The notes below the pieces were generated by a model that ran no database searches, was not told the origin of the DNA, and saw nothing but the letters and a program-made list of their open reading frames with translations. A DNA stretch of 64,000 nucleotides from an uncultured Bacilli bacterium. GTDB lineage: Bacteria > Bacillota_I > Bacilli_A > RF39 > UBA660. This document shows, one piece after another, positions 4,752 through 30,154 of this stretch; position 1 is the first letter of the stretch; every line of letters starts with the position of its first letter. The stretch is from contig CAKOXC010000004.1 in the NCBI GenBank assembly GCA_934129945.1, positions 2,579 through 66,578 of the forward strand, in the 5' to 3' direction. Made by a program: the position numbers and the translations under genes.

Positions 4752-5504
4752 ATGCGAAAAAATGCAAAGTATATCTTAGTATCTTTGCTGTCATTTTGTT
4801 TTGCAGTAAATGTTAATGCTGCAGAATGTAGTTATGAAAAACAGGTTGAACTTAATAATATTGCATCTACTGTAAAAGCAACTTATGAGGCGGTTGATAT
4901 TGATACAGGAAAAACAGTTAGTTATGTCGATGAAGATGGAATTATTGATACTGATAGACAGGTTCCAGTTAAAGAAAAAGGTTTTAATGTTAAGATATTA
5001 AATCTTACTGAAAATCTATCAATTAAAGTAACTAATGAAACAGAAGGAACAACAAATTATTACTATTATTCAGATTCTGATAACGGTACTATTACTTTAA
5101 GTTCTAAAGTTGCAGATAGAATTTATACATATACAATTACTGTATATGGCACAAAAGATTCATGTGAAGGAATAGAACTACGAAGTTTAAATCTTATAAC
5201 ACCAAAATATAATACATATTCTGATTATTCTTTTTGTAAAGAATATCCAAATTTTGATTATTGTCAAGAATATGTAGTTGATGATAGTTTTAATTTAGAA
5301 GACTTCATTAATAAATCAGCAGCTTATAAAGAAACACAAGATTCTAAAAATAGTAAAGATAATCAAAAAGATAAAGATAATAATAAATCAAATTTTTTTA
5401 AAGAGAATAAAAAATTATTAATTGTATGTGGATCAATCATATTAATAGTGGGGGTTACTACTACTGTGATTATTATCATAAGAAAAAGGAGTAGATTAAT
5501 ATGA
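4752..5504 (+). CDS. Secreted surface protein with C-terminal TM anchor and basic tail; first gene of the pilus/T4SS-like cluster
   Basis: Signal peptide ...VNVNA/AECSY; C-terminal LLIVCGSIILIVGVTTTVIIIIRKRSRLI; the N-terminal ECSY module is shared with the 19346 ORF. Confidence 0.5.
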   Translation: MRKNAKYILVSLLSFCFAVNVNAAECSYEKQVELNNIASTVKATYEAVDIDTGKTVSYVDEDGIIDTDRQVPVKEKGFNVKILNLTENLSIKVTNETEGTTNYYYYSDSDNGTITLSSKVADRIYTYTITVYGTKDSCEGIELRSLNLITPKYNTYSDYSFCKEYPNFDYCQEYVVDDSFNLEDFINKSAAYKETQDSKNSKDNQKDKDNNKSNFFKENKKLLIVCGSIILIVGVTTTVIIIIRKRSRLI

Positions 5505-8332: not shown

Positions 8333-8352
8333 CGGAAAGGATTGAATAATAA

Positions 8353-8766
8353 ATGAAAGAAGTTTATTGGGGATATTGGTTAATAGTTTTAGGTGTATTT
8401 ATAACTGTGGTTATGATGATGATAACTAATGTTACAACTTCTAGTACTCAAGATTATTATTTAATCAAAGAAGTTACGGAAGCTTCAATGTTTGATGCTG
8501 TAGATTTAGCTACTTATAGAGAAAATCAAACCTTAAAAATTAATCAAGAAAAATTTGTTGAAAGTTTTATTAGAAGATTTTCTGAAAATGTAAGTTTATC
8601 AACAACATATAATATTGAATTCTACGCAATTCAAGAGCAGCCACCAAAAGTTAGTGTTAAAGTATCGAGTAAATCAAGTGTATTTACAATATCTGGAGAT
8701 AGTAAAAGTTTTGATTTAGTTGATAAAGTTGATGGTATTCTTGAATTACCTAATAATAATAAATAA
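8353..8766 (+). CDS. Bitopic membrane protein (N-terminal TM, extracytoplasmic domain), unknown; minor pilin or assembly factor candidate
   Basis: GGA RBS; YWGYWLIVLGVFITVVMMMI TM helix then soluble domain. Confidence 0.4.
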   Translation: MKEVYWGYWLIVLGVFITVVMMMITNVTTSSTQDYYLIKEVTEASMFDAVDLATYRENQTLKINQEKFVESFIRRFSENVSLSTTYNIEFYAIQEQPPKVSVKVSSKSSVFTISGDSKSFDLVDKVDGILELPNNNK

Positions 8767-8789
8767 AAAGGAATAAAAAGGAGGAAATA

Positions 8790-9647
8790 ATGGCAAATTT
8801 ATTAACAACAATTAAAAGATTTTTAGGTAATAAGAATACAGTAACAATTTTAGGAGTTATAGCCGGTGTATTAGTTATATACATTGGCTATAATTGGCGT
8901 GTAAAGCAAGCTATTAAACCTGTTACTGTACCTTATGCTAAAGTAGAAATATCTTCAAGAACTCAAATTACAGAAGATATGATTGGTTATATGGAGGTAT
9001 CAAGTAGTTTAGTTAACAATAGTCCTAACTTAATACAAAATGCTAGTCAAATAATCAATAATTATGCTGCTTATGGAGTAACTATCCCTGCAAATAGTTT
9101 ATTCTATACATCAGCTATAATGACTGAATCAGAAATGCCTGATTCTGCATTTGCAAATATTCCGGATGGATATACAATTTATTCATTATCTGTAGATTTA
9201 CATGATACATATGGAAACTCAATATACCCTGGTAATTATATTGATTTATATTTAAAAGCTACTGATGATAGTGGAAAAATTATATTTGGTAAATTAATTG
9301 AAAGTATTGAAGTATTAGCTGTAAAAGATAGTCAAGGAAATCATGTTTTTGAAACTACTGTAGAATCAAGAACACCTGCAGAATTATTATTTGCAGTACC
9401 TGATGATATGTACTTATTATTAATGAAAGCTGGATATGTTTCTGGTGGAGTGGATATACTTCCAGTACCAAGAAATGCATCATATTCTGCTAATCCTGGT
9501 GAAACTTCAGTTGCATCAGATTATATTAAGAACTTTATCTTATCTAAAACAGCAACAATCCCTGATAATGTTGTAACTAATACTACAAATAACAGTAATA
9601 CAAATAATGATAATACTACAAACAACAATAATAATAATAACGATTAA
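8790..9647 (+). CDS. cpaB: Flp pilus assembly protein CpaB (SAF + RcpC domains) with Asn-rich low-complexity C-terminal tail
   Basis: N-terminal TM; VTVPYAKVEISSRTQITEDMI (SAF-like); YSLSVDL...YPGNYIDLYL...IEVLAVKD...TPAELLFAVPDDMYLLLMKAGYVSGGVDILPVPR matches the CpaB core. Confidence 0.75.
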   Translation: MANLLTTIKRFLGNKNTVTILGVIAGVLVIYIGYNWRVKQAIKPVTVPYAKVEISSRTQITEDMIGYMEVSSSLVNNSPNLIQNASQIINNYAAYGVTIPANSLFYTSAIMTESEMPDSAFANIPDGYTIYSLSVDLHDTYGNSIYPGNYIDLYLKATDDSGKIIFGKLIESIEVLAVKDSQGNHVFETTVESRTPAELLFAVPDDMYLLLMKAGYVSGGVDILPVPRNASYSANPGETSVASDYIKNFILSKTATIPDNVVTNTTNNSNTNNDNTTNNNNNNND

Positions 9648-9680
9648 TATGATTTAAAGAATAAAAAAGGAGGTGATTTT

Positions 9681-10973
9681 ATGAATGATGCTATATTCTC
9701 TCAGTTAGATTTTGGACCATTAAATGAATTTTTAATGGATGATAATGTTACCGATATTTCTTATAGTAACAATGGTCAAGTATTTTTAAAAACCTTAACT
9801 AAAGGTGTTTATAAAGTTGAAAGACCAGAGATAAATAATGCATTAATGGAAAAATTAGCATTTCAATGTTCTAATGTTATGGGTAAAACATTTAATATGG
9901 CTCATCCTTTTCTAGATGCAGAAAGTACAGAGTTACGTTTAAATTTCGTTCATGAATCAATTGCAACTAATGGAATAGCAGTATTAATTCGTAAAACACC
10001 TGCTAAAATTCGTTTAAATAGAGATAAATTATTAAGAGAAGATTATGTAACAGAGGATTTACTTAACTTCTTAATTGATTGTGTTCATGCTCGTTGTAAT
10101 ATTATAGTAAGTGGTGAAACTGGTTCAGGTAAAACAGAACTAGTCAAATATCTTGCAAGTAATACAAGAGAAGATGAAAAAATTATTTCAATAGAAGATA
10201 CTTTAGAGTTACACTTAGATAGAATTTATCCACATCGTGATATTGTTGCAATGAAAACTAATAATATTGCATCTTATACTGATGTACTTGTTACATGTAT
10301 GAGACAAAACCCAATATGGATATTACTTGCCGAGGTTCGTAGTGCTGAAGCAGTACTTGCAATCCGTAACTCAATATCTTCTGGACACCATATCATGTCA
10401 ACAATTCATGCTGACAAAGCTGCAAGTATTCCAATGCGTATGTATTCATTACTTGAATCAAGTCAAGATACAGATCAATTCTTATCTTCAATTCATAGAT
10501 ATGTTCAATTAGGAATATATGTTAAAGGTTACATGAGTAAAAAATATAATAGATTTCAACGTGAAATACTTGAAGTTTGTGAATTTTATGTTGATGATGA
10601 TAATAAACCATGTACAAATGAAATTTATAAAAAAAGTTTGGATGGAACAATGAGTTTCAATAATCCAACACAACATTTAAAAGATTATTGTAGTATTCAA
10701 GGAATTGATTTAGGTGATGATCCATTCCACTTGGTAACAGAAAAAAAATCAACAAATAATTTAAAAAATCCATTAGAAGAACAAACACCAACCACTTCTA
10801 ATGAAATAAAAAATGTTGATAAAGCTCCTGTTAATCAACAGGTGGAAGTAAAACCTATTAATTCTACTGTGGAAAACCCTACTGTTATCAACAGTGTTCC
10901 TACAAATCAAAATAATAATCAAATAAACAATATATCTAATATAAGTAATATAGATGTATTAGATATTATATAG
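9681..10973 (+). CDS. VirB11/CpaF(TadA)-family secretion ATPase with long low-complexity C-terminal tail
   Basis: Walker A VSGETGSGKTE; Asp box IISIEDTLELHL; Walker B/His box WILLAEVR...HHIMSTIHAD; about 100 aa N/Q/T-rich tail. Confidence 0.85.
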   Translation: MNDAIFSQLDFGPLNEFLMDDNVTDISYSNNGQVFLKTLTKGVYKVERPEINNALMEKLAFQCSNVMGKTFNMAHPFLDAESTELRLNFVHESIATNGIAVLIRKTPAKIRLNRDKLLREDYVTEDLLNFLIDCVHARCNIIVSGETGSGKTELVKYLASNTREDEKIISIEDTLELHLDRIYPHRDIVAMKTNNIASYTDVLVTCMRQNPIWILLAEVRSAEAVLAIRNSISSGHHIMSTIHADKAASIPMRMYSLLESSQDTDQFLSSIHRYVQLGIYVKGYMSKKYNRFQREILEVCEFYVDDDNKPCTNEIYKKSLDGTMSFNNPTQHLKDYCSIQGIDLGDDPFHLVTEKKSTNNLKNPLEEQTPTTSNEIKNVDKAPVNQQVEVKPINSTVENPTVINSVPTNQNNNQINNISNISNIDVLDII

Positions 10974-10995
10974 AATAAGGAAGAGAGGTATAGTA

Positions 10996-11889
10996 ATGGT
11001 ACTTATATTATTATTAGCAATTGCCATATATGTAGTTTCTTATAGATTAAATAAAGGTGAAAATGTTTATAAATTCTTTATTACCTCTGTACAAAATGCA
11101 TATGAAAAATACGCTCCATATTCTTTTAAAGAAGTTAGACAAAAAACTAAAGAATTAGGAAGAGAATATACAGCAAAACAATATGCAATACAAATAAGTA
11201 TAATTGGTGGGTTTGCTGGAGTTATATCATATTTGTATTTTTACAACGTTTTAATAACTATAATTTATGTAATAATAGCTATAGCTTTTATTCCTTATTT
11301 AGCATATTTAAGATGTCAAAAAGTATATAGTGAATATATATTTGAACAAATTCAAATATATACTACTAACGTTATTATGGAATTTAATACTACTCAATCA
11401 TTTGTTAAATCTTTAGAAGGTGTTAGAGATTCTGGTATCCTACTGGATCCAGTTTTACAAGATGTTAAAACTATGATTGATATGTCTTATCAAAATGGTA
11501 CAATTGATGAATCTATTGAATATTTTAATGCTAAATATCCATTCTATATGGTAAAAAATATGAATCAATTGTTTTTACAAATTACTAAAGAAGGTGCTAA
11601 AGATTCTGGTGAAGCATTAGAAAATATGGCAATGGATATAGATGCTTTAGTAGAAGGTGTTTATAGAGACCAAATGGATAGAGTAGAATTCCATAGAAAA
11701 TTCTTAACATTTGGTGTTGCATTATTCTTTCTAGTACTTGCAATGCAATTTTTATTAGGAACAGATTCATATATTGAACTATTAGATATGTTTTATGTTC
11801 AAATAATATTACATTTGATAATAATAATTAATGCTTATTTCTTATTATCTGGTGAAAAATTCTACAATGAAGATGTGGGGGTTGAGTAA
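10996..11889 (+). CDS. GspF/TadB-TadC-like inner-membrane platform protein (paralog 1)
   Basis: Topology of N-terminal TM, cytoplasmic helical domain and C-terminal TM pair; position immediately after the secretion ATPase as in tad loci. Confidence 0.55.
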   Translation: MVLILLLAIAIYVVSYRLNKGENVYKFFITSVQNAYEKYAPYSFKEVRQKTKELGREYTAKQYAIQISIIGGFAGVISYLYFYNVLITIIYVIIAIAFIPYLAYLRCQKVYSEYIFEQIQIYTTNVIMEFNTTQSFVKSLEGVRDSGILLDPVLQDVKTMIDMSYQNGTIDESIEYFNAKYPFYMVKNMNQLFLQITKEGAKDSGEALENMAMDIDALVEGVYRDQMDRVEFHRKFLTFGVALFFLVLAMQFLLGTDSYIELLDMFYVQIILHLIIIINAYFLLSGEKFYNEDVGVE

Positions 11890-11891
11890 TT

Positions 11892-12680
11892 ATGCATATA
11901 GAAATAGTTATTTTAGCAGCAATTATATTATTTGTTTTAAACTATACTGGAAGAATTAACGCTAATAGATTTATTACTGACAATACTGAATATTTTAGAA
12001 AATTAAAAGAAGACGATTGGGATTTTTTAGTAAAAGCTAGATATGGCGATGGAGCAAACCCAGACATATTATTTACTAAGAGAGTTCAAAATGCTGGAAT
12101 AGTATTAGTATTATGCTTATTTATCTTTATTTCTAACTTCAGTTATGCAACATTCTTAGTTTCATTAATTGCAGCCTATTTAATGTTTAAGTCTGGTTAT
12201 AGTAGTATGAAAAAGTATTATAAAAAACATTTGAGTGAAATAGATTCAATGTTACCACATTATTTAAAAAGTTTGGAAATATTAATTCAACACTATACAG
12301 TACCTGTTGCTATTGGTAAATCAATATCTGATGCTCCTGAAATATTTAGAGAAGGACTTCAAGAAATGATTAATGAAATTAATGCTGGTAATGATAAAAT
12401 AGATCCATACATGAATTTTGCTAAAGAATATCCAGTAAGAGATTCAATGAGAATGATGAGACTTTTATATCGTTTAAGTTTAGGTAAACAGGAACATAAA
12501 CAAGAACAATTATTAACATTCTCAAAAACAATATCTAATCTACAACAAAAAGCACGTGAAACACGTTATAAAAATAGATTAGATAAGATGGAAAGCAAAA
12601 CAATGTCAATGTTAATTACTACAGGTTTAGGAGTTATGATACTTTTAATATTTGCAGTATTACAAATGATGAATTTATAA
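11892..12680 (+). CDS. GspF/TadB-TadC-like inner-membrane platform protein (paralog 2)
   Basis: Same topology; T2SSF-like segment ...VPVAIGKSISDAPEIFREGLQEMINEINAGN...; 3-nt gap after the upstream paralog. Confidence 0.55.
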   Translation: MHIEIVILAAIILFVLNYTGRINANRFITDNTEYFRKLKEDDWDFLVKARYGDGANPDILFTKRVQNAGIVLVLCLFIFISNFSYATFLVSLIAAYLMFKSGYSSMKKYYKKHLSEIDSMLPHYLKSLEILIQHYTVPVAIGKSISDAPEIFREGLQEMINEINAGNDKIDPYMNFAKEYPVRDSMRMMRLLYRLSLGKQEHKQEQLLTFSKTISNLQQKARETRYKNRLDKMESKTMSMLITTGLGVMILLIFAVLQMMNL

Positions 12681-12691
12681 TATTTTAAATT

Positions 12692-12718
12692 ATCTCTTTT
12701 ATAAAAGAGATTTTTTTT
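12692..12718 (+). terminator. Rho-independent terminator after the TadC-like gene
   Basis: ATCTCTTTTATAAAAGAGAT hairpin followed by T8. Confidence 0.65.
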
Positions 12719-12751
12719 ATATAATTAAAGTAATAGTTAGGAAGATAGATT

Positions 12752-14239
12752 ATGAAAAAGAAAATAGAATCAATGTCAAGATTTTTTCCGTATATTTTAG
12801 GAATACTAATAATAGCTTTTGTATTAATCCAAAAATTTTCTCAAAATGATTTGTATTTTGATATAAGAACTGGAAAAGATATTTTAAAATATGGAATTGA
12901 TTTCAAAGATCATTTCAGTTTTATACCAGGATTAAAATATTTATACCATCATTGGTTTTATGATTTAATAATATATTTTATTTATACTAAATTTAATTAT
13001 GTTGGAGTATTTATTTTTTTCTATTCTCTGTATGTTTTATTTGGATTAATTTTATTTAAAACTAATTATAAGGCTGATAAGAATAAATTTTTATCATTTA
13101 TAGTTTCTATTATTACTTTATATTTAATGAAAGACTTTTTTGGAACACGAGTTCAATCGATTTCTTATATTATTTTCTTTTTAGAAATAATTTTTATAAA
13201 TAAACTTTATAACACAGGTGAAATAAAGTATTCAATAATATTAATTTTAATGTCAATATTGTTGGTTAACATTCATATGCCAGTTTGGATACTATATTTG
13301 ATTTTTTTCCTTCCATTTATCGCCGAAATATTATTTAGTAAATTTTCTAAATTATATAATAAAAATATTACAAATAAATTAATATTTTGTAATCCAAAGA
13401 ATTTGAAAATATTTTTAATAACTTTTATAGTGGTAATTCTAACAGGGTTAATTTCACCTTATAAATTTATGCCTTATATATTTTTTATCAAAACACTAGG
13501 AAATCCATATTATTCTTATATTGGAGAAATGCAAAAAACAATTTTAATTAATTCTATTCCATTTTTAATTATAGTATTTTGTTCTATTATTACTTTAATT
13601 TTTTGTAAAGTTAAAGCAAGAGACTTTTTCTTGATTTTTGGATTATTATTACTTGCATTATTTGCAAATAGACACAGATCCTACTTCTGTACAATTATTC
13701 CAACATTAATTTATAAAATAATTGTTGAAAACGATTTTAAAATAATAAAATTAAAATTACCTAATTTTAAAGTTAATACTACTCTTATAAGTTTTGTTTT
13801 AACTTTATTACTTATAATTTTATATGTAATGTGTTTCATAACATTAAATTTAAAAAAATTTAATTATCATGAAAATGAAAATTATCCAAATGAAACTATA
13901 AAATATATAAAAAAAAATATAGATAAAAAGAATTTAAGAATATACAATAATTTTAATATTGGATCATATCTTGCTTTTAATGATGTGCTAAATTTTGTTG
14001 ATTCAAGAGCAGAAGTTTTTATGGAAAATTTTAATAATAGTAAAGATATTTTAGAAGACATTTTTATTAATATAAAAAAATATGAAGATTACGAAAAAAT
14101 AATAAAAAAATATAACTTTAACTATATTTTGGTAGAAAAAGGTGAAATTTTAAATAGTTACATAAAAGATAAAGAAGACTATCAATTATTATATAATGAA
14201 AAAAATGAATACTTTTTATATAGTGTAAATCTAAAATAA
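12752..14239 (+). CDS. Large polytopic membrane protein (about 12 TM) with C-terminal soluble domain; possible GT-C-fold glycosyltransferase/pilin-modifying enzyme
   Basis: 495 aa, extremely hydrophobic; architecture resembles ArnT/PMT/YfhO-type lipid-linked-sugar transferases; no motif firmly identified. Confidence 0.4.
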   Translation: MKKKIESMSRFFPYILGILIIAFVLIQKFSQNDLYFDIRTGKDILKYGIDFKDHFSFIPGLKYLYHHWFYDLIIYFIYTKFNYVGVFIFFYSLYVLFGLILFKTNYKADKNKFLSFIVSIITLYLMKDFFGTRVQSISYIIFFLEIIFINKLYNTGEIKYSIILILMSILLVNIHMPVWILYLIFFLPFIAEILFSKFSKLYNKNITNKLIFCNPKNLKIFLITFIVVILTGLISPYKFMPYIFFIKTLGNPYYSYIGEMQKTILINSIPFLIIVFCSIITLIFCKVKARDFFLIFGLLLLALFANRHRSYFCTIIPTLIYKIIVENDFKIIKLKLPNFKVNTTLISFVLTLLLIILYVMCFITLNLKKFNYHENENYPNETIKYIKKNIDKKNLRIYNNFNIGSYLAFNDVLNFVDSRAEVFMENFNNSKDILEDIFINIKKYEDYEKIIKKYNFNYILVEKGEILNSYIKDKEDYQLLYNEKNEYFLYSVNLK

Positions 14240-14255
14240 AAATTTTCGAATAATG

Positions 14256-14284
14256 TTGATAAATTGATTTATTAACGGTATAAT
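14256..14284 (+). promoter_or_regulatory. Near-consensus sigma-A promoter upstream of the pilin-like gene array
   Basis: TTGATA - 17 nt - TATAAT about 45 nt upstream of the 14329 start. Confidence 0.55.
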
Positions 14285-14328
14285 AATAATGTATAAAATT
14301 AAAGATAAAGAAAGAAGGAATTTTATTT

Positions 14329-14556
14329 ATGAAAGAAGCAACAGGAGAATTAAATATGACAGTTGTAACAGTAGTTGCAATAGCAGCAATAGCAGCATTT
14401 TTCTATACATTCGTTTGGCCTGGAATTAAAGATAGTATTAAAAAAAATACTTGCGAAGCACAATGTTCAACAGGTGATAGTAGTTGTGTAAATACTTGTA
14501 TGAACAAAGATAATACCAATACTAATACTAATACTAATACTAATACTCAAGGTTAG
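14329..14556 (+). CDS. Small pilin-like protein (class-III-signal-like N-terminus, Cys-rich C-terminal domain, TN repeat tail)
   Basis: MKEATGELNMTVVTVVAIAAIAAFFYTF: short polar leader, Gly, then hydrophobic helix; 6 Cys; (TN)x6. Confidence 0.55.
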   Translation: MKEATGELNMTVVTVVAIAAIAAFFYTFVWPGIKDSIKKNTCEAQCSTGDSSCVNTCMNKDNTNTNTNTNTNTQG

Positions 14557-14603
14557 GAAATAATTTTTATTAATCATTAGAAAAATAGTAAGAAGGTAAT
14601 ATA

Positions 14604-14840
14604 ATGAAAGAGGCAACAGGAGAACTTAATATGACATTAGTTATTGTAATAGCAGTAGGAATCCTTGCTGCCTTTTTCTATACTGTTATATGGCCTTTAA
14701 TAGGTGATAATTTTGATAGAAATGCTAATTGTAGTAAAGCTATCTGTAAATGTGAAGGTACTTGTAAACAAGATGGGATTGCACAATGTTATATAAAAGG
14801 TAAAAAAAATAATGTTTTTGAGTGTCCTTGGAAAGGTTAA
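14604..14840 (+). CDS. Small pilin-like protein, paralog of the 14329 ORF
   Basis: Identical N-terminus MKEATGELNMT then hydrophobic helix; 8 Cys. Confidence 0.55.
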   Translation: MKEATGELNMTLVIVIAVGILAAFFYTVIWPLIGDNFDRNANCSKAICKCEGTCKQDGIAQCYIKGKKNNVFECPWKG

Positions 14841-14856
14841 TAGATAAGGTGATGTA

Positions 14857-15372
14857 ATGAGAGAAGCAATAGGTGGAACTTGGTTATTTAATTTAGTTAT
14901 TTTCTTTGTATTGCTATTTGCTGGTTATATGTGTTTATCTATTAACTATTCAAAAGCATTTGGTGTTAAGGATAAAATAATAAATGAACTCGAAAGAAAT
15001 GGTGGAGTTAAAGTATTTACAAACAGTAATTATACAGATATAGCTTTAACAAATATTTCTAATTATATGAAAAAAGTTGGCTATAGAACCAAAGGAAGTT
15101 GTAAAGGATACAGTTATGGTTGTACTTTGGACGGAAAATGTACTAGTGTTAATTCTAGTAATACTACAAAATATGCTTTTTGTTTATCTGAAGTAAAAGC
15201 AAATGATGCATATTCTTATGCAGTAAATGGGACTCCTGGAGAATTTATTTATGTAAGTTATTATAAGGTAAAAGTTTTTTATCAATTGGATTTACCTATT
15301 ATAAGAACAGCATTTGATTTCAATATAAAAGGAGATACAAAAATACTTTATAAAACAGCAAATAAACATTAA
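14857..15372 (+). CDS. Pilin-like/pseudopilin-like protein (171 aa)
   Basis: MREAIGGTWLFNLVIFFVLLFAGY leader+helix similar to the small pilins; Cys-containing globular domain. Confidence 0.5.
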   Translation: MREAIGGTWLFNLVIFFVLLFAGYMCLSINYSKAFGVKDKIINELERNGGVKVFTNSNYTDIALTNISNYMKKVGYRTKGSCKGYSYGCTLDGKCTSVNSSNTTKYAFCLSEVKANDAYSYAVNGTPGEFIYVSYYKVKVFYQLDLPIIRTAFDFNIKGDTKILYKTANKH

Positions 15373-15386
15373 TAGAAGGTGGTTAA

Positions 15387-15917
15387 ATGAGAGAAGCAAT
15401 AGGTGGAACGTGGCTTACACAACTTGTAATAATTATTATGTTTGTATTTGTAGCATTTTTAGCACTTTCTATGAATTATTCAAAAGCTTTTAGAGTTAAA
15501 AATGAATTGCTAAGTATTATTGAGAAAAAAGAAGGTATTTCTCAAACAAATAATGTAAATGGTAGTATATTTTTGATTAATAATTATTTGAAAAATAATG
15601 GTTATAGTACAGTTGGAAAGTGTGAAAAAGGAAGCTATGGATTTAATATAAATAGTGTACACGCAACATTAATTAATGATGGAAATAAAAATAAAAAGTT
15701 TAATTATTGTATTTCAAAAACTAAAAGTATTGCATCTAATTTCCCAAATAGAGCATATTATAAAGTTAAAATATTTTTTAAATTTAATCTACCAGTAGTT
15801 GGAGATATTTATACTTTTAAAGTTGATGGTGAAACAAAAGATGTTAATTATCCTAAAGATGGAAAATGTGGAAAAAATGATTCAATACAATGTGTAAAAT
15901 CAAATATTGATACATAG
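15387..15917 (+). CDS. Pilin-like/pseudopilin-like protein (176 aa), paralog of the 14857 ORF
   Basis: MREAIGGTWLTQLVIIIMFVFVAF...NYSKAF shared with the 14857 ORF. Confidence 0.5.
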   Translation: MREAIGGTWLTQLVIIIMFVFVAFLALSMNYSKAFRVKNELLSIIEKKEGISQTNNVNGSIFLINNYLKNNGYSTVGKCEKGSYGFNINSVHATLINDGNKNKKFNYCISKTKSIASNFPNRAYYKVKIFFKFNLPVVGDIYTFKVDGETKDVNYPKDGKCGKNDSIQCVKSNIDT

Positions 15918-15940
15918 AAGAAGAAAAGAGGTAAAAATAT

Positions 15941-16945
15941 ATGAATGTAATTATTTCAAATAAATATCAATCTTTGTTAGCAAATTTAGATATTGATGTA
16001 ATTAAAAGTATAAATGGAGAATTTGATGTTGAGGAAATTGTATCTAATTTTACTAATTTTTTCTTTAATAAAATGATTATAGATGTCACAGCTATAAAAA
16101 ATTATCAAGATATTAATACTTTTCAACAATTATCTGTAGGGCTTGACATGAATAAAATTATTTTACTACTTGATGATTCAGAAATTGTTAATTCCCCAAT
16201 GTTTTTGTCACAATTAGTTTCAATGGGAATTTATAATTTTACAAGAAATATCGATGCTGTTAAGTTTTTAATAGATAACCCTAATAGTTATAAAGATGTT
16301 GCTAGTTATCACCAATTAAGTAATATTCCTGTATCAACTCCTGAGACAGGTGTTTCACAACCTAATTATAATCGCTTAGGTTTACGTGTTATAGGTATTA
16401 AAAATGTTACTAACCATGCTGGTTCAACAACTCTTACTTATTTATTAAAAAAGCATTTGGAAAAATGTTATCAAGTTGTAGCAGTAGAAGTTGATAGCAA
16501 TGATTTTATGTATTTTAATGATAAAACTTTAAAAACAACTACTGCTTTAGACCTTCCATCATTTATTGCTACTAATTCTGGAAATGAAGTTATTTTAGTA
16601 GACTTAAATGATAAAGGTCCAATCAGTTCTTGTACTGAAGTTATTTATTTAATAGAGCCTGGTTTAATTAAATTAAATAAATTAATAAGAAAAGATCATA
16701 AAGCATTTGAAAAATTAAAAGATAAAAAAGTGGTATTAAATCGTAGTATATTAAATGATAGAGATGTTGCTGATTTTGAATATGAGTCAAAAAGTAGGGT
16801 ATTTTATAATATGCCTTATCTTGATGATAAGCTTGATAAAAGTGCTGCTGTTGATGAATTCTTAGTAAAATTAGGATTTAGTCGTCTAGAAAGTGACAAC
16901 GAAGAGTCAAAAGGTAGTAAATTATTTGGCATATTTAAGTCTTAA
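15941..16945 (+). CDS. CpaE/TadZ-like protein (ParA/MinD fold) with degenerate P-loop
   Basis: N-terminal receiver-like region then LRVIGIKNVTNHAGSTTLTYLL...VILVDL, which resembles a MinD-type deviant Walker A/B with the GKT lysine replaced. Confidence 0.4.
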   Translation: MNVIISNKYQSLLANLDIDVIKSINGEFDVEEIVSNFTNFFFNKMIIDVTAIKNYQDINTFQQLSVGLDMNKIILLLDDSEIVNSPMFLSQLVSMGIYNFTRNIDAVKFLIDNPNSYKDVASYHQLSNIPVSTPETGVSQPNYNRLGLRVIGIKNVTNHAGSTTLTYLLKKHLEKCYQVVAVEVDSNDFMYFNDKTLKTTTALDLPSFIATNSGNEVILVDLNDKGPISSCTEVIYLIEPGLIKLNKLIRKDHKAFEKLKDKKVVLNRSILNDRDVADFEYESKSRVFYNMPYLDDKLDKSAAVDEFLVKLGFSRLESDNEESKGSKLFGIFKS

Positions 16946-17005
16946 TACTTGACATAACTTTTTTACTATAATAAAATTAATACATAGAGAGAAGAGGTAT
17001 AGGTT

Positions 17006-17389
17006 ATGAATAATTTATTTTTAATAGCAGGTATTGGTACTGGAACTTTACAAAATGGTTTTTGTTCTGCTTCTGCTGATATTTGGCAAGTAGTTGGATA
17101 TGTATTATTAATATTTAAAATTGTTATTCCAGTAATATTAATTATTATGGGAATGATTGATTTAGGAAAAGCTGTTGTTGCTGGTAAAGATGATGAAATA
17201 AAAAAATATACAAAGTCATTAGCAATCAGAGGAGTTTCAGCAGTATTAATATTCTTTGTTCCTACTATTATCGGATTAATAATGGGTTTAGTTGGTAATT
17301 TTACAACTAGTGGAGCAGAGGCAGATTTTAAAGTTTGTAGAACTTGTATTACTAGTCCTAGTAAATGTGCAGTTACTAATCAAGATTAA
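17006..17389 (+). CDS. VirB2/TrbC-like pilin family protein (paralog A) with CxxC-x5-C tail
   Basis: Two TM helices separated by a short charged loop (IWQVVGYVLLIFKIVIPVILIIMGMIDLGKAVVAGKDDEIKKYTKSLAIRGVSAVLIFFVPTIIGLIMGL), then KVCRTCITSPSKC. Confidence 0.5.
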   Translation: MNNLFLIAGIGTGTLQNGFCSASADIWQVVGYVLLIFKIVIPVILIIMGMIDLGKAVVAGKDDEIKKYTKSLAIRGVSAVLIFFVPTIIGLIMGLVGNFTTSGAEADFKVCRTCITSPSKCAVTNQD

Positions 17390-17413
17390 AAGCATTTTAT
17401 TGCTTTTTTTTTA
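17388..17413 (+). terminator. Weak rho-independent terminator after VirB2-like paralog A
   Basis: AAAGCA-loop-TGCTTT then T9; followed by a TGTTATACTTAAA extended -10-like element. Confidence 0.4.
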
Positions 17414-17455
17414 TTCATTTGTTATACTTAAATAGTATTAAAGTGAGGTTAAAAT

Positions 17456-18085
17456 ATGAAAAAAATTAAAATTGTAATTATGATATTAGCAGTTGTATCT
17501 ACATTAAGTTTTACAAATGTTTATGCAGTTTCTAAAAATAGTAAAACTTATAAAAATTGTATCGCTAAATGTGACAAATTTAAAAATAAAAATGGTAAGG
17601 TAAAGAAAAATCAAAAGCAAGCATATAATGCGTGTATGTCTCCATGTAATGCCAAACTTGATAAAACTGAAGCAAATAAAAATGTTGAAAATTTAAATAA
17701 GAACAAAAATAATAGTAACAAAACTTCTACAACAACTAACCTAGATTTTTGTGCTTCAACAGCTTCAATATGGCAAATAGTAGGTTGGGTATTTTTAATA
17801 GTTAAAATAATTATTCCAGTATTATTAATTATTTTTGGAGTAAAAGATTTTGCGCAAGCTGTAGTATCTTCAAAAGATGATGATATAAAGAAAGCTGCTA
17901 AAGCACTTATGACACGAGGTATAGCGGCTGTTGCTATTTTCTTTGTACCAACTATTGTGAGTTTAATAATGGGATTAATTGTAGATTTTACAAGTAGTGG
18001 TGCAAAAGCAGATTTTGATATTTGTCAATCATGTATGTTAAAGCCATCAGCTTGTGATATAAGTAAAGATGTTGGAAAGCAATAA
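17456..18085 (+). CDS. VirB2/TrbC-like pilin family protein (paralog B) with Cys-rich N-terminal extracellular domain
   Basis: Signal peptide; IWQIVGWVFLIVKIIIPVLLIIFGVKDFAQAVVSSKDDDIKKAAKALMTRGIAAVAIFFVPTIVSLIMGL then DICQSCMLKPSAC. Confidence 0.5.
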   Translation: MKKIKIVIMILAVVSTLSFTNVYAVSKNSKTYKNCIAKCDKFKNKNGKVKKNQKQAYNACMSPCNAKLDKTEANKNVENLNKNKNNSNKTSTTTNLDFCASTASIWQIVGWVFLIVKIIIPVLLIIFGVKDFAQAVVSSKDDDIKKAAKALMTRGIAAVAIFFVPTIVSLIMGLIVDFTSSGAKADFDICQSCMLKPSACDISKDVGKQ

Positions 18086-18105
18086 AATATTGCTTCTTTT
18101 TTTTG
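18075..18105 (+). terminator. Rho-independent terminator after VirB2-like paralog B
   Basis: GAAAGCAATA-loop-TATTGCTTC then T8; followed by a TGGTATACTTAAAA extended -10-like element. Confidence 0.55.
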
Positions 18106-19269
18106 TTTTTGGTATACTTAAAATACAAGAGAATAGGTGATAAAATGAGTGAATTTTTAGATAATTTAAGAAATATGGATGATGAAAGTAAAAAGAAGAT
18201 TAAACTATTAGGAATAGGTTTAATTGGTTTTATTATGTTAATAATAATAATTGCAATAATTGTTGCAATTATTAATCGAAAAACGTCTTATGAGGATATG
18301 GAAATTATCATGAGTAAAGCTGCTTATTCTTATTATCAAGATAATTTAGGAAAATTACCTACTGAGTCTTCAAAGACTTCAGTTGTTGATGAGACAACTT
18401 TAGTTAATGGTAAATACATGAAAAGTATTAAAAAATATACAAAAGATGAAACTTGTAAGGGACGTGTTGAAGTAACATATAATAATGGTGATTTTGATTA
18501 TCAAACATATCTTACATGTAATTCATTTACTACTATTTTATTAAAAGATCAAATAAAAAAAGATAATTTATTAGTAACTAGTGGTGCAGGATTATATGAT
18601 GAAAATGGCATTTTAAGATTTAGAGGTGAAAAGTTAAACAATTATCTTAAAGTAAAAAATACTATTTATAGAATAATAAAGATAGATAATGAAGATAAAA
18701 TTTATATTATTCCTGAAAATATGGATGATAATGATGAAAAAGTTTTTGTTTATTGGGATGATAGATATAATTCTGAGGAACAAATAAATTGTGGTATAAA
18801 TGATTATTCTCTAAGTAGAATTAAAGATTCATTAGATGTTATATATAATAGTTTAGATAAAGAATTAAAAGCAAAAACAACGAATTTTACTGCATGTGTT
18901 GCTAATAGATCAGAAAATGACATAATAAATACAGGAGATATTGAATGTAGTAAAAAAATAGAAAATTCAACAATAAGTTTATTGCCTATTTATGAATATA
19001 TTAGAGCCAGTATAGCTCCAGCATGTCAAACCACATCTTCAAAAGAGTGTAAAAATTATAATTATATGTATACAGATTCATATATGTGGTGGAGTGGAAC
19101 AGGAGATTCAACAAATACTGATAAAATTTATTCGGTAAATTATTCTGGTGAAATTGATAAAGATAGAGGAAATTCTAGAAAAGTTGCTAGATATGTTGTA
19201 GCTTTAAAAGGAAATACTTTATTAAAAGAAGGTAATGGTACTAAAAAAAGTCCATATCAAATTAGATAA
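18103..19269 (+). CDS. Bitopic membrane protein with large extracytoplasmic domain; VirB8/TcpC-like scaffold candidate
   Basis: Short cytoplasmic N-terminus, single TM (LLGIGLIGFIMLIIIIAIIVAII), about 330 aa Cys-containing ectodomain. Confidence 0.35.
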   Translation: MFLVYLKYKRIGDKMSEFLDNLRNMDDESKKKIKLLGIGLIGFIMLIIIIAIIVAIINRKTSYEDMEIIMSKAAYSYYQDNLGKLPTESSKTSVVDETTLVNGKYMKSIKKYTKDETCKGRVEVTYNNGDFDYQTYLTCNSFTTILLKDQIKKDNLLVTSGAGLYDENGILRFRGEKLNNYLKVKNTIYRIIKIDNEDKIYIIPENMDDNDEKVFVYWDDRYNSEEQINCGINDYSLSRIKDSLDVIYNSLDKELKAKTTNFTACVANRSENDIINTGDIECSKKIENSTISLLPIYEYIRASIAPACQTTSSKECKNYNYMYTDSYMWWSGTGDSTNTDKIYSVNYSGEIDKDRGNSRKVARYVVALKGNTLLKEGNGTKKSPYQIR

Positions 19270-19345
19270 AATTTAATGTTTTATCTTTTTTTGCATTTTT
19301 AAGAAAAATATTTATTTTAATAGACAAAGTATTATGATATAATGA

Positions 19346-20491
19346 ATGTATATGAATAGAGGTTTTAATATGGATAAAAAATGCTTGAAATATATTTTTA
19401 ATAGCTTAATTATATTTATTTTATTTGGAATTATTAATGTTGAAGCTTCTGTAGAATGCAGTTACAATTATTCTTATAATAGAAATGATATGATTATAAA
19501 AATAAATTCTGATGGAGCAAAGGTAACCGCTAATAATACTTCAATTGATATTGCTTATGGTAAAGTAGAACAATTATCTTTAGCTGATGGTTCAATAGTA
19601 AATATTAAAGTTGATAATTCTTTAAAAAATAAATTTGCTAGTTTTACAAATTGTTTTGACAGTATTGGATTTGTTGAAACGCTTGAAACAGGTAATTTAA
19701 CAATTAAAGATAGTTGTACTGGTTATGCTGGGGATGCTTCTAAATGTTCAAATTTGCAAGGAACTGGTACAACAACTGGAAATACTACTCAAACAACAAG
19801 TACAAAAACTACTATCAATTTTACTACAACTGATAATGTAAGTGGAGTTTTAGGAGTAAATGAAAATGGTAAGTATTATTTAAAAATAAATAATGATAAC
19901 AATACAATAACATATGATCCTACTGCTGAGTTTGCATTTAATTATGGTAATAAAAGCTATAGAATTGATCCTGATACAAAAGATAATATTTTTAAATCAA
20001 GTTCAAGTTCAGTTAAACTTTATGCCTTAGATTCTGGAACGGGTGGAAATAACTGGCTACTTTCTTTAAATTCAAGTAAAGATGGTTATACAACTCCTGC
20101 TGATGTTAGTGGAAGACAAGATTACAAAGTTAATGTAAAGAAAAATAAAAATAAACTTGATTCAGCTGACTTCAAAGGAATTTGTTCTGAAGACAGTGTA
20201 CGTAAAGTTTTTCAAATTATGGGTTATGTGCTTTTAATTGCTAAAATAGCTGTTCCAATTTGTTTAATTATATTTGGGGTAGTGACACTTGTTAAAGTTG
20301 TAATATCTGGAGAACAAGAAGCATTAAGGAAGGCTGTAAAGAATTTAGGAATAAAAGCTTTAGCAGCTGTTATAATATTTATACTTCCTACAATAATTTA
20401 CTATATAACAAATTTAGTTAGTGGAAATAGTAGTGATACAAAAGTTTATGGATATTGCAAAACATGTTTATTTGAACCTAAAAAATGCTAG
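19346..20491 (+). CDS. Secreted protein with large N-terminal domain fused to a C-terminal VirB2/TrbC-like module (paralog C)
   Basis: Signal peptide; ECSY module as in the 4752 ORF; C-terminus VFQIMGYVLLIAKIAVPICLIIFGVVTLVKVVISGEQEALRKAVKNLGIKALAAVIIFILPTII then GYCKTCLFEPKKC. Confidence 0.5.
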   Translation: MYMNRGFNMDKKCLKYIFNSLIIFILFGIINVEASVECSYNYSYNRNDMIIKINSDGAKVTANNTSIDIAYGKVEQLSLADGSIVNIKVDNSLKNKFASFTNCFDSIGFVETLETGNLTIKDSCTGYAGDASKCSNLQGTGTTTGNTTQTTSTKTTINFTTTDNVSGVLGVNENGKYYLKINNDNNTITYDPTAEFAFNYGNKSYRIDPDTKDNIFKSSSSSVKLYALDSGTGGNNWLLSLNSSKDGYTTPADVSGRQDYKVNVKKNKNKLDSADFKGICSEDSVRKVFQIMGYVLLIAKIAVPICLIIFGVVTLVKVVISGEQEALRKAVKNLGIKALAAVIIFILPTIIYYITNLVSGNSSDTKVYGYCKTCLFEPKKC

Positions 20492-20500
20492 GAGGTTTTT

Positions 20501-20842
20501 ATGAAAAAAATAAAAAATATTTTATTAATAACAATTTGTTTATTTCCATTAAATGTCTTTGCTGGAAGTAATGATTGTGTAGAAATTTTTGGAAAGAATT
20601 CTCAAACTCTTGAATATTTACAAGATATATATTCTTTTTTAAAGTTTCTAGTACCAATAATACTTTTAGCTATGAGTGTTAAAGATTTTGTCTTAGCAAT
20701 TGCTAAAGAGCAAGCTGATGATGTAAAAAAAGCAACTAATACTTTATTTAAAAGAATTATTATTGCAGTATTAATTTTAATTATACCAACAATTTTGAAT
20801 TTCTTCTTAAAGTTGATTGGATATAGTACTTGTACTTTATAA
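20501..20842 (+). CDS. Small VirB2/TrbC-like protein (paralog D)
   Basis: Signal peptide, then a two-TM hairpin with charged loop (FLVPIILLAMSVKDFVLAIAKEQADDVKKATNTLFKRIIIAVLILIIPTIL). Confidence 0.45.
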   Translation: MKKIKNILLITICLFPLNVFAGSNDCVEIFGKNSQTLEYLQDIYSFLKFLVPIILLAMSVKDFVLAIAKEQADDVKKATNTLFKRIIIAVLILIIPTILNFFLKLIGYSTCTL

Positions 20843-20869: not shown

Positions 20870-23080
20870 ATGCTAATTGGTAACTTTATGACAAGCTTAT
20901 TTAATGTTGCAAAATATGGATTTTTTAGCATATTTTTATACATAGATTCAGTTGTATATAAAATAGTTAGTATGCTATTTTCAGTATTTTTCTCATTAGC
21001 TGAATTACAACTTTTAAAAGACGATGCTTACCAAGCTATTTCAAGTAGAATTTACTTATTAGTAGGAATAGTTGCCCTTTTTTCAATTACTATTTCATTA
21101 TTAAAAGCGTTAGTTAATCCAGATAATTTAGGTAAAGGAACTATATCTTCATTTAAAAATCTTATAGTTTCAATGTTACTAGTTATTTTAATGCCAACTA
21201 TATTTAAATATGCATTTTCATTTCAAGCAGCAATAATTAACGATGGAGTTATTAATAATCTTTTTAATTTTAGTATAACAACTGGTAAAAATGAAATGGT
21301 TAATGAATGTAATAATCCAAAAGATGTTTCAGTTAATACAGCTGATAATGAAACGTTAAGTTCAGAAATTAATATGACAGTTGATGAATGTCAAGCAAAT
21401 TATATTACAATGACAGTTTTACAAGCATTTTTTTCACCTTCAAATGATAATGTAACTAATAATTATGGTACAACATGGAAAGATGCTAGAAGATATATAT
21501 GGTATACAGGTGATTTTGATTATATAGCCACATTTGCTGAACAAGTAAATAAAGGAGATAGCAATAGTTATATAACATATTATATTATTATTACTACTAT
21601 TGCTGGATTCTTCTTAGGATATGTTGTTTTGTCTTTTTGTCTAGATTTAGGAATAAGAGCATTTAAATTAGCATTTTACGAATTAATTGCTCCATTACCA
21701 ATACTTATGAAAATAGTTCCAGGTCAAGAAGGTAAATTTGACAAATGGAGAAAAGAAGTTGTTAGTACTTTCTTAGAAGTGTTTGTAAGATTAATTATAA
21801 TAAGCTTTATAATATTTATGTGTGGTAATTTATTTGATTTAATAAAAAATTTAAGTTGGGGTGAGACAGGACCAGGATTATTAGCAAAAGCAATTTTAGC
21901 TTTAGGTTTATTTGCCTTTGCAAAACAAGCACCAAAACTATTAAAGGATGCTTTAGGTTTAGACGGTTCAGGTGTAAAATTTGGAATCAAAGGAAAACTT
22001 ACAGATGTACCTGTTGCTGGAAAAGCATTCGCTGCAGGTTACGGTGTGGCTAGTAAATTAAAGAATTCTGCAACAGGAGCTATTTCAGGTGGACTTGGTG
22101 CCGGATGGTCTTCAATGGTAAATAAAAATGGTTTTGCTAATGGATTTAGATATGGAGCTGCAAAAGGTGCTAAAAATGGTGGAAATCAGTTTAACTCTCA
22201 ACGAAGAGATATGTATACTAGATATGGTGGTAAAGGAGTTGCTGGTGCATTTGGTGGTCAAGCGTATTTTGACAAAAAAGCAGATGCTGCTGATAAAGCT
22301 GCTAAAAATGATATTAAAGAAAGATTTAGAAATTCACAAACTTATAATAATATGTTAGATCAAATGTTATTTAGTAAAAATCAAGAAATGATGGCTAATA
22401 GACAGCATCAAGTTGATACTAAAAAGATTCTTGATAATTATAATAAAAATATTAGTGATTATGAAAGTTCAGGAGAGTTTAGTGGTATAATGGCTTCTTT
22501 TGAAAATGAAGCTAGAGAAAAAGCTACAAGAACAGTATCTGAAAAAGTAAAAAGTGGTCAAATGACAGCACAAGAAGGCAAAAATGAAGTTGAAAGATTA
22601 ACTAATTTAATGCAAAAAGCTTCAGCTGTAAATTATTTAAAAGAACAGGCTGCTAAAGGCACAGCTACCGAAGCCTCAAAAAGATATTTATCAGCTGTTG
22701 AAAATTTAACAAGTGCTAAAAATGATTATTTAAATGCTAAAAATCTTCAAACTACTATTTCAGAAGAGGATAAAGAATTAGCTAAAAAAGCTACTGATGA
22801 ATTCTTTAGACATACTGATAATAAGAACAAAGAACTTGGCTCTGGTACTTTAGGAAAAGCGTTCCAAGAAGTATTAAGAAGCGAATACAGTAATAGTTTA
22901 AGTAATAATGATGATGTCTTGAAAATGGCTCAAGCAATGAAAATGGCTCAAGCTGGCGGTGGAGCTCCAAATGGAAGTAATTTAAATCCTAGTGCACCTA
23001 ATGGTGGTGGACCAGGTGGCGGACCAAAACCTGGAGGGCCAGATGCCAAAGGACCAGCTGAACCTGGTGATAAGAAATAA
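20870..23080 (+). CDS. VirB6/TrbL(TcpH)-like polytopic channel protein with Gly/Pro-rich C-terminal tail
   Basis: 736 aa; multiple TM helices in the N-terminal two thirds; coiled-coil region; GGGAPNGSNLNPSAPNGGGPGGGPKPGGPDAKGPAEPG tail as in many TrbL proteins. Confidence 0.55.
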   Translation: MLIGNFMTSLFNVAKYGFFSIFLYIDSVVYKIVSMLFSVFFSLAELQLLKDDAYQAISSRIYLLVGIVALFSITISLLKALVNPDNLGKGTISSFKNLIVSMLLVILMPTIFKYAFSFQAAIINDGVINNLFNFSITTGKNEMVNECNNPKDVSVNTADNETLSSEINMTVDECQANYITMTVLQAFFSPSNDNVTNNYGTTWKDARRYIWYTGDFDYIATFAEQVNKGDSNSYITYYIIITTIAGFFLGYVVLSFCLDLGIRAFKLAFYELIAPLPILMKIVPGQEGKFDKWRKEVVSTFLEVFVRLIIISFIIFMCGNLFDLIKNLSWGETGPGLLAKAILALGLFAFAKQAPKLLKDALGLDGSGVKFGIKGKLTDVPVAGKAFAAGYGVASKLKNSATGAISGGLGAGWSSMVNKNGFANGFRYGAAKGAKNGGNQFNSQRRDMYTRYGGKGVAGAFGGQAYFDKKADAADKAAKNDIKERFRNSQTYNNMLDQMLFSKNQEMMANRQHQVDTKKILDNYNKNISDYESSGEFSGIMASFENEAREKATRTVSEKVKSGQMTAQEGKNEVERLTNLMQKASAVNYLKEQAAKGTATEASKRYLSAVENLTSAKNDYLNAKNLQTTISEEDKELAKKATDEFFRHTDNKNKELGSGTLGKAFQEVLRSEYSNSLSNNDDVLKMAQAMKMAQAGGGAPNGSNLNPSAPNGGGPGGGPKPGGPDAKGPAEPGDKK

Positions 23081-27718: not shown

Positions 27719-30154
27719 TTGGTGGTGATTTTTTTGAATAATTCTAATAATGATAATATTTCAAATAATAATCAACAAACTACTAATTTAAATAATAAAA
27801 ATATAAATATGCCAAATAATAAAGTTAATAGAGAAAATCCATCATCTTCACAAGATGTTACACATACACTAGGAAAAGGAGTAGCAACTCATTTTGGTGG
27901 TGGTATTGGTAATAAAATTTATGATGAAGCAAGTAAGACAAAACTTGGTCAGAAAATAGAAAAAAATGCTTCTAAGCAAATTGATAGAAATCCAATTGCA
28001 TCAAAAGTTGCTAATGGATTAAGTAGTGCAGGCGCAACAGATAAAGCAAATAGTGCGATTGATGCTTTAAGTTTTAAGTCAGGTGGAAAATGTTTTAATA
28101 GTAATTTAAATAAAGGTGCAAAAAGTACTAATAAAAAATTAAATAATAATAATTTTTCTGTTAATAGTCCAATTAGAAATAGATCTAGTTTAAATCAACC
28201 AACTCTTTTAAATGATGGACTTGATCAAGCTCCAGATTTTGAAAATATGACTCCTGAAGAAATTGAAGACTATAGATTAAAACAAGAGGAATTGGAGCAA
28301 ATAAACCAAGAAAAAGAAAAAAAAGAAAAAAATGATAAAAGAAAAAAACAGGTAAAATCAATAATTGAATTTTTTGTAAGACATCCTCAATTATTACTTA
28401 TTGTTGGAATAGCATTATTAATAATTTTTGTCCTTATAATTTTAATTTATATGATTTCTTCAGATATGGATTTAGTTGGTAATAGAGGCGTTGGGTATGA
28501 CAACGCAGAACAAGTAAGTGGATATTGTGAAAATATTATTTTAATAAAAGAACATGATGATTTTCCTGGGGCAGCTGTTGCTTCAATAGATGATGTTAAT
28601 TTAGAAGAAACATTTAGATTAAATAATAGAGATGTTAAAAGATATGAATATCAAACTTATTCATTGGAAGAATATGTAAAAGGAGTATTACAAGCAGAAA
28701 CATCAATTATAAAAGAAGAAAAAACATATGAAGTTGCTGCTATTGTAGCAAGAACTTATGCTGTTGAAATAGCTAATAAAAACTGTTATGTTTGGGATAA
28801 TAATAATAAAAGAAGTGAATATAAAAATCCACAAAATTTTAATCATGATAATATAGATAGTGATATTTCAGAAGCAGTTTCTAAAACTACAGGATTAATT
28901 GCATATGATAAAGATCAAATAATAGATATGAGTCAAGATAGTTATTATGATTATTTTTGTTATAATAAAATTACCAATAGTAGTTCGGAAGATCAATCTT
29001 ATTATGAAATGATTCAAGAAAATGAAGAAGAAAATTTATTGATTTCTGTTGATTGGACAAAAGATAATAATAATGTTGCTGATGGTGATGCTAAGAAATG
29101 GAATTTTAGTGGTAAATATAATGGTGGTGGATATAATAATAATTGTCAAAAAAATGGTTTAAGTCTTTATGGTGCAAAATACTTGTTGAATAAAGAGTAT
29201 AATCCTTATGATACGATTAGAGTATTAATGTATTATTATACCTATGATTTAGAATTGAAAAAAGTTGGTTCTTTTATTGCTAGTGATGGATGTTTTTGGT
29301 GGCCAACTGACGGTACAATAATAACTTCAAGGTTTGGATTAAGAGATGCTCCAACAGCTGGTGCTTCAACAAACCATGGTGCAATAGATATTGCTGTTAG
29401 CCAAGGAACTAATGTATATGCAACAGCTAATGGAAAAGTAACCGTTGCAGGAGCTGTATCAGGCTATGGATATGCGGTTTATATTGATCATGGAAATGGA
29501 ATTGTTTCAAGGTATGGACATCTTAGAGCAGATGGTATCAAAGTTTCTGTAGGTCAAAATGTTTCAGCCGGGGATATAATTGCTTTATCAGGTAATACAG
29601 GAATTTCCACAGGACCCCATCTTCATTTTGAAATTAGATTAAATGATGTAAAGGTTGATCCACTAAATTATGTAAGTCCAATCGATCAACGTCCAACTTG
29701 TACAAATTCAGGTGGAACAATAGTTGATACAGGAGAAAATTCTTCTTCAATTTGTATGACTTTAAAAAATAATGGATTTACTTCACCACAAATTGGTGGT
29801 ATTATGGCAAATTTATTTGCAGAATCAGGATTTAATCCTGCATCATTTAACCCTGGTGGTGGTGGACAAGGAGCATATGGTATAGCTCAGTGGCGTGGTA
29901 ATAGACAGGCTGCGTTAAAAAGTTTAGCTAATTATGATACTCTTGAAGTTCAATTATCTTTCTTATTAAGTGAATTAAACTCTTCAGAAGCAGCAGCAAA
30001 AAGTTCCTTATTATCATCAGGTGGTGATGCTAATAGTTTAGCTTATGTTTTCTGTTCAAAATATGAAAGACCTGGCGGAACAATTTGTACAGAAAGACAA
30101 AATTCTGGTAATGGTTTATCTTATTCAAATTATGCTACAAATAATTGTAGTTAG
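27719..30154 (+). CDS. Three-domain secreted peptidoglycan hydrolase (SpoIID/LytB-like + M23 peptidase + phage-tail-lysozyme-like domain); probable start is the TTG at 27734
   Basis: N-terminal TM; YEVAAIVARTYAVE (SpoIID-like); HGAIDIA...GYGYAVYIDHGNGIVSRYGHL...GPHLHFEIR (M23/LytM); GIMANLFAESGFNP...GAYGIAQWRGNRQ (phage tail lysozyme-like). Confidence 0.8.
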   Translation: MVVIFLNNSNNDNISNNNQQTTNLNNKNINMPNNKVNRENPSSSQDVTHTLGKGVATHFGGGIGNKIYDEASKTKLGQKIEKNASKQIDRNPIASKVANGLSSAGATDKANSAIDALSFKSGGKCFNSNLNKGAKSTNKKLNNNNFSVNSPIRNRSSLNQPTLLNDGLDQAPDFENMTPEEIEDYRLKQEELEQINQEKEKKEKNDKRKKQVKSIIEFFVRHPQLLLIVGIALLIIFVLIILIYMISSDMDLVGNRGVGYDNAEQVSGYCENIILIKEHDDFPGAAVASIDDVNLEETFRLNNRDVKRYEYQTYSLEEYVKGVLQAETSIIKEEKTYEVAAIVARTYAVEIANKNCYVWDNNNKRSEYKNPQNFNHDNIDSDISEAVSKTTGLIAYDKDQIIDMSQDSYYDYFCYNKITNSSSEDQSYYEMIQENEEENLLISVDWTKDNNNVADGDAKKWNFSGKYNGGGYNNNCQKNGLSLYGAKYLLNKEYNPYDTIRVLMYYYTYDLELKKVGSFIASDGCFWWPTDGTIITSRFGLRDAPTAGASTNHGAIDIAVSQGTNVYATANGKVTVAGAVSGYGYAVYIDHGNGIVSRYGHLRADGIKVSVGQNVSAGDIIALSGNTGISTGPHLHFEIRLNDVKVDPLNYVSPIDQRPTCTNSGGTIVDTGENSSSICMTLKNNGFTSPQIGGIMANLFAESGFNPASFNPGGGGQGAYGIAQWRGNRQAALKSLANYDTLEVQLSFLLSELNSSEAAAKSSLLSSGGDANSLAYVFCSKYERPGGTICTERQNSGNGLSYSNYATNNCS

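Follow-up and report, generated by a model that had tools for sequence, protein, structure and literature searches.

Four neighbouring genes on the plus strand of the 64,000-nucleotide stretch of DNA analysed here (the window), which derives from an uncultured gut Firmicute, encode pilin-like proteins that share a membrane hairpin, and two of them carry extra ectodomains. We consider it probable (about 0.6) that these proteins, designated A to D, are specialised paralogs of a VirB2-like pilin (the T4SS_pilin lineage) belonging to a chromosomal Gram-positive type IV secretion system (T4SS).

The first gene, A (17006..17389), encodes 127 aa with no added domain, its N-terminus being a short uncharged head of 19 residues. 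B (17456..18085, 209 aa) consists of a signal peptide, a 75-aa Lys/Asn-rich domain with a twin CX3C motif (C35, C39, C60, C64), the hairpin and a CxxC-x6-C tail. For C (19370..20491) the listed open reading frame opens at 19346 (381 aa), whereas homologues start at Met9, corresponding to position 19370; the protein comprises a signal peptide, two beta-rich ectodomains (residues ~35-145 and ~155-245), the hairpin and again CxxC-x6-C. D (20501..20842, 113 aa) is composed of a signal peptide and the hairpin. The preliminary description of this DNA had proposed that the four reading frames share a two-helix hairpin with a charged loop, and coordinates, motifs, hydropathy and BLASTP all agree with this. 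Each protein contains two hydrophobic segments (Kyte-Doolittle 19-residue means of 2.2-3.0) separated by a loop of 25 residues with 4-5 K/R, compared to just 0-1 K/R in the outer flanks of A and B. An AF2 model of A (pLDDT 77) shows helices at 24-59 and 62-96. Typical Sec signal peptides were found on B (..VYA|V), C (..VEA|S) and D (..VFA|G). Since these signal peptides and the secreted Cys-rich domains of B and C precede the first transmembrane segment (TM1), the N-terminal side of the hairpin is placed outside. On sequence grounds the topology can be regarded as established, with both termini predicted outside and the conserved K/D/E-rich loop in the cytoplasm.

Paralogy of the four proteins is well above chance (BLASTP, A versus C 1e-25, A versus D 2e-9). 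The cores are 25-55% identical (A/B 55%, A/C 47%, A/D 29%), and conservation is concentrated in the cytoplasmic loop and both helices, with K38, P42, K67, P86 and T87 invariant in all four. A recent duplication, for which a nucleotide alignment had been suggested as a test, was not borne out; nucleotide identity of the copies amounts to 44-67% with a longest exact match of 13 nt, and the copies are therefore old.

The assignment to the pilin family is based mainly on PF18895 (T4SS_pilin, VirB2-like). This model matches A (E=4.2e-5, 24.0 bits, positions 6-71 of 71), B (E=2.4e-5, 24.7 bits, positions 10-71) and D (E=4.1e-4, 20.8 bits, positions 7-71), all below the gathering cut-off of 26.6 bits, and no Pfam match was obtained for C. 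Among 147 family representatives, 66 match PF18895 (E<=0.01; best 1.1e-7), by far the commonest Pfam match among them, and an orthologue of A with 86% identity (P0004) has a precomputed PF18895 assignment. Because of these matches and the precomputed assignment in close orthologues of A, A-D are, judged by their sequences, a divergent branch of PF18895, the copies in the window lying just below the threshold. When the limits published for calling VirB2-like pilins (i-E<0.001, HMM coverage >50%; PMC12102498) are applied, A, B and D are included and C is excluded. Weak HMM matches to transmembrane families have to be treated with caution, as the same hydrophobic segments also yielded spurious matches to 7-TM receptors with E ~1e-3 to 1e-5. 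NCBIfam NF045849 (Mbov_0395 pilin-like) gave scores for A (E=0.005, 16.6 bits) and B (E=0.011, 15.4 bits) far below its cut-off of 40 bits and no match for C or D. Moreover, PF04956 (TrbC/VirB2) did not match any of A-D at E<=1, and a family profile searched against PDB sequences at E<=10 recovered no VirB2, TraA or TrbC chain and no similarity to solved structures. Monomer fold searches returned only generic helical hairpins and cannot discriminate such a fold. The profile comparison with PrgF of pCF10 that had been recommended was likewise negative (hhalign, probability 2.8% over 16 columns). Of the VirB2/TrbC likeness put forward in the preliminary description, the VirB2-like part is thus retained, PF18895 being the sole consistent family match and the genes adjoining those for VirB6, VirB3 and VirB4, while no match to PF04956 or PrgF stands behind the remainder. 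The general VirB2-like architecture (small, two TM helices, charged cytoplasmic loop, termini outside) is seen in A-D, B and C being oversize through their N-terminal domains; A (127 aa) and D (113 aa) also fit the architecture of the PrgF(B2) group (50-150 aa, 2 TM, near virB6), B and C being larger. The sub-cut-off scores, the lack of a Pfam match for C and the lack of similarity to TrbC, VirB2, PrgF or any structure count against the T4SS pilin reading.

The gene order of the locus, in which the pilin-like genes are followed by those for VirB6, VirB3/VirB4, a hydrolase and VirD4, argues for this reading. All these genes lie on the plus strand. The VirB6-like protein (20870..23080) is polytopic with a long Gly/Pro-rich C-terminal tail and matches NF045889 (Mbov_0396 ICE transmembrane protein, E=1.1e-7). 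Three coupled reading frames follow, encoding a VirB3-like protein (23099-23410), a VirB4 N-domain (23394-23960) and the VirB4 ATPase (23960-25744), over which positions 2-96, 92-276 and 294-891 of NF045975 (VirB4_plasma) are spread, the last with E=3.5e-107; this split of VirB4 is conserved in ~40 loci. Further downstream are a cell-wall hydrolase with SpoIID-like, M23 peptidase and lysozyme domains (27719..30154), which may take a VirB1-like role, and a VirD4-type coupling protein (31081..33258; PF02534, E=1.3e-49). The locus is chromosomal; no relaxase was found in it and no VirB5 homologue. A promoter-like site (16949..16977, plus strand; TTGACA-17 nt-TAAAAT, 11/12 matches) lies in the 60-nt gap before A, but is weak evidence, since in DNA this rich in AT such sites are no more frequent than in shuffled sequence. 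Directly after the stop codon of A, a stem-loop with a U-run (17388..17413, plus strand; 7-bp stem, 9 U) resembles an attenuator or terminator; it has a folding energy of -6.1 kcal/mol (z=-3.15), and 0/200 shuffles fold as well. Between B and C lies gene X (18145..19269, plus strand), whose bitopic product has one N-terminal TM and a 310-aa Cys-containing ectodomain. X is not a paralog of A-D, has no match in Pfam, NCBIfam or PDB sequences, and its place within the array is conserved in 24 related loci.

The arrangement of the array was followed in 53 related loci, defined by the presence of both a hairpin array and virB6. The arrays contain 2-8 hairpin genes. The array opens with a short gene (106-155 aa) in 52/53 loci, the exception (L078) starting at a contig edge, and in all 53 the array adjoins virB6, the last hairpin gene ending a median of 14 nt before it (27 nt in the window). 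D always takes this last place. Orthologues of B with the same '..CDTSKDVGKQ' tail are found in other species. The fusion of the hairpin to secreted N-terminal domains, already pointed out in the preliminary description, is real and common; most family representatives measure 200-500 aa, begin with a signal peptide, continue into a Cys-rich ectodomain and have the hairpin at the C-terminus. This might suggest that the hairpin is a general disulfide-stapled membrane anchor for surface display and that the array encodes non-polymerising accessory proteins of the T4SS or Tad machinery, such as adhesins or spacers. Consistent with that, and counting against the T4SS pilin reading, the hairpin also serves as N-terminal anchor of M23, C39-like (C39_2) and GDSL enzymes outside T4SS loci, one such gene sitting among housekeeping genes. 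Nevertheless, there is nothing to anchor in A or in the first gene of 52/53 arrays, conservation of the loop and both helices with their invariant residues is unusual for a passive anchor, and both the consistent PF18895 similarity and the tight coupling to virB6 speak against such a role. We therefore regard an anchoring role as unlikely, although deserving some weight.

Upstream of the array lies a Tad-like filament module (4752..16945, plus strand) encoding two secreted proteins, DUF5411, a CpaB-like protein, an ATPase scoring equally as VirB11 and TadA, two polytopic proteins, a ParA-like protein and four small pilin-like proteins with an M(K/R)EAxG leader. It is co-linear with the array in 20/35 well-flanked related loci. 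The hairpin proteins could accordingly be partners of this machine, that is of its ATPase and two polytopic proteins, rather than of VirB4/VirB6. A comes directly after the module in the window, the equal scores of the ATPase allow either assignment, and 7/35 well-flanked loci show the ATPase module followed by one lone A-type gene, lacking both MKEATG-type small pilins and, within 10 kb, any T4SS, which also counts against the T4SS pilin reading. However, as the count covers only 10 kb, the genomes of these loci may hold a T4SS elsewhere; conversely, the array occurs with a T4SS but without the module in 6/35 loci (e.g. L008 and L081), and it always adjoins virB6. Type IV/Tad pilins, moreover, are built from a class III leader and a single N-terminal helix. 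A partnership with the Tad-like machine consequently appears doubtful. As to identity, the two TM helices of A-D and the Sec-type leaders of B-D argue against A-D being Type IV/Tad (Flp) pilins themselves, a family which the small proteins at 14329-15917 fit better.

VirB2 paralogs of Bartonella Trw and Anaplasma have reportedly been proposed as antigenic or phase-variation repertoires, and an antigenically variable pilin set had been considered for the window as well. Several sequence-divergent tandem copies, array sizes that range over 2-8 copies depending on the species, and the strain differences in C, whose distal domain is only 58% identical between strains compared to 98% for the hairpin, would be compatible with alternative pilins of this kind. 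However, identity of A, B and D is 100% across six strains, although the neighbouring Tad-like pilins reach only 57-79% between them, the old paralogs share no nucleotide stretch that could drive recombination, and every paralog type keeps its place in the array and recurs as orthologues in other species. A variation repertoire is thus largely refuted for A, B and D and highly improbable overall, and what is left of the idea concerns the distal domain of C. Being the strain-variable part, this domain fits a recognition or adhesin role, in line with the adhesin-type ectodomain suggested previously.

A conserved Cys triad in the tails of three proteins had been noted earlier. The tails are indeed present, but the triad is part of a set of four, as a further cysteine ~7 residues before TM1 (C20 in A, C99 in B, C280 in C) is equally conserved. 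A-C thus show a 1+3 layout with CxxC-x(5-12)-C after TM2 (C111, C114 and C121 in A), and D a 1+1 layout in which C26 and C111 flank the hairpin, one per side. The 1+3 form was confirmed across homologues, occurring in 398/542 family sequences, and the 1+1 form in 15/16 D-type proteins. We suggest that the cysteine before TM1 pairs with one after TM2 on the outer face, so that D would carry a single disulfide and A-C two each, a staple closing the open end of the hairpin like the head-to-tail peptide bond of cyclic VirB2/TrbC/TrhA pilins. A membrane-anchored thioredoxin (CSHC; 4161..4613, minus strand) is a candidate oxidoreductase for extracytoplasmic cysteines; that it acts on the hairpin proteins is speculative, and a thioredoxin homologue directly follows the A gene in one related locus (L062). 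A cytoplasmic Zn-binding knuckle in an N-in/C-in protein, although the C...CxxC...C spacing resembles Zn-ribbon and knuckle motifs, can practically be discarded in view of the signal peptides of B-D, the secreted domains ahead of TM1 in B and C, the location of the K/R-rich segment in the loop and the retention of just two cysteines in D.

For membrane entry B, C and D, judged by their sequences, use Sec signal peptides, and A has its short N-terminal tail. If A-D are T4SS pilins, then by analogy to R388 and to PrgF/PrgH of pCF10 the VirB4 ATPase would pull subunits out of the membrane pool and deliver them to the VirB6 platform. There they would build a tube that crosses the wall where the M23/lysozyme hydrolase has opened it, the loops facing the lumen and the termini the outside; polymerisation of A-D is itself suggested by this analogy. 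A, which is short, always first, possibly under its own promoter and followed by the stem-loop and U-run, may represent the bulk subunit, and D, always last and presumably translationally coupled to virB6, the VirB6-proximal subunit. B and C would be minor components, their N-terminal domains pointing outward as a decoration or cap; as a helical lattice of the VirB2 type would have no room for a 250-aa domain on every subunit, they could occupy only sparse or terminal positions. Their ectodomains would supply target recognition instead of the missing VirB5.

Gram-negative VirB2, TrbC and TrhA are cyclic or processed conjugative pilins that form two-helix hairpins with outward termini, and Bartonella Trw contains multi-copy VirB2/VirB5 sets, the paralogs being used for target binding. 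The window array resembles these systems in the two-helix hairpin with outward termini, in its multiple paralogs and in the covalent closure of the hairpin end, there by a peptide bond and here by the proposed disulfide. It differs in the absence of a PF04956 match and of a VirB5 homologue, in a closure chemistry that is inferred, and in ectodomains fused to the pilin itself. A second likeness is to the Mycoplasma ICE module. The best matches of the window proteins are Mbov_0396 for the VirB6-like protein (1e-7) and Mbov_0397 for VirB4 (3.5e-107), A and B weakly match Mbov_0395, and the gene order follows this consecutive numbering, though all scores are under the NCBIfam cut-offs. In contrast to the window, the Mycoplasma systems reside on ICEs of wall-less cells with a single pilin-like gene, and their VirB4 is one 894-aa protein instead of three reading frames.

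Experiments on a Gram-positive T4SS have proved VirB2-like proteins essential to it (10.64898/2025.12.18.695078, preprint 2025). PrgF(B2) of Enterococcus faecalis pCF10, a single-copy protein of 75 aa with two TM, no cysteines and no signal peptide, was proposed there to assemble into a polymer on a pentamer of VirB6 and to traverse the wall; its group, defined by the authors via architecture and not sequence, is also predicted on Gram-positive conjugative plasmids. The window proteins share with PrgF the two-TM design, the short charged cytoplasmic loop and the position just upstream of a VirB6-like gene, and the locus mirrors the pCF10 order prgF-prgH-prgI-prgJ-prgK (B2...B6-B3-B4-B1). Unlike PrgF, there are four chromosomal paralogs, two with large ectodomains, without a relaxase and without detectable sequence similarity to it. 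Protein A had no match in 72,556 plasmids (tblastn).

In Patescibacteria, VirB2-like pilin arrays (PF18895) lie beside MPF_FATA-type T4SS, with 2-11 divergent tandem copies near virB4 (mean identity 25%, maximum 54%; Quinonero-Coronel et al. 2025, PMC12102498); such arrays are also attributed to Wang et al. 2023, as cited in PMC12857230. They agree with the window array in the PF18895 family, the divergent tandem copies, the monoderm host, the chromosomal locus, the usual lack of a relaxase and the additional presence of a type IV pilus system. By contrast, the window belongs to a spore-forming low-GC Bacillota gut lineage, its proteins are sub-threshold for the PF18895 model, and its array is physically placed between a Tad-like module and the T4SS and follows a fixed order, opening with a short gene, continuing with genes fused to ectodomains and closing with one coupled to virB6. 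The conserved 1+3 and 1+1 cysteine arrangement of the window family may be a further difference, as may the fusions as such. The known precedents of the window array are thus PrgF and the Patescibacteria arrays, and pilin-gene arrays in single-membrane bacteria have so far been reported mainly in Patescibacteria.

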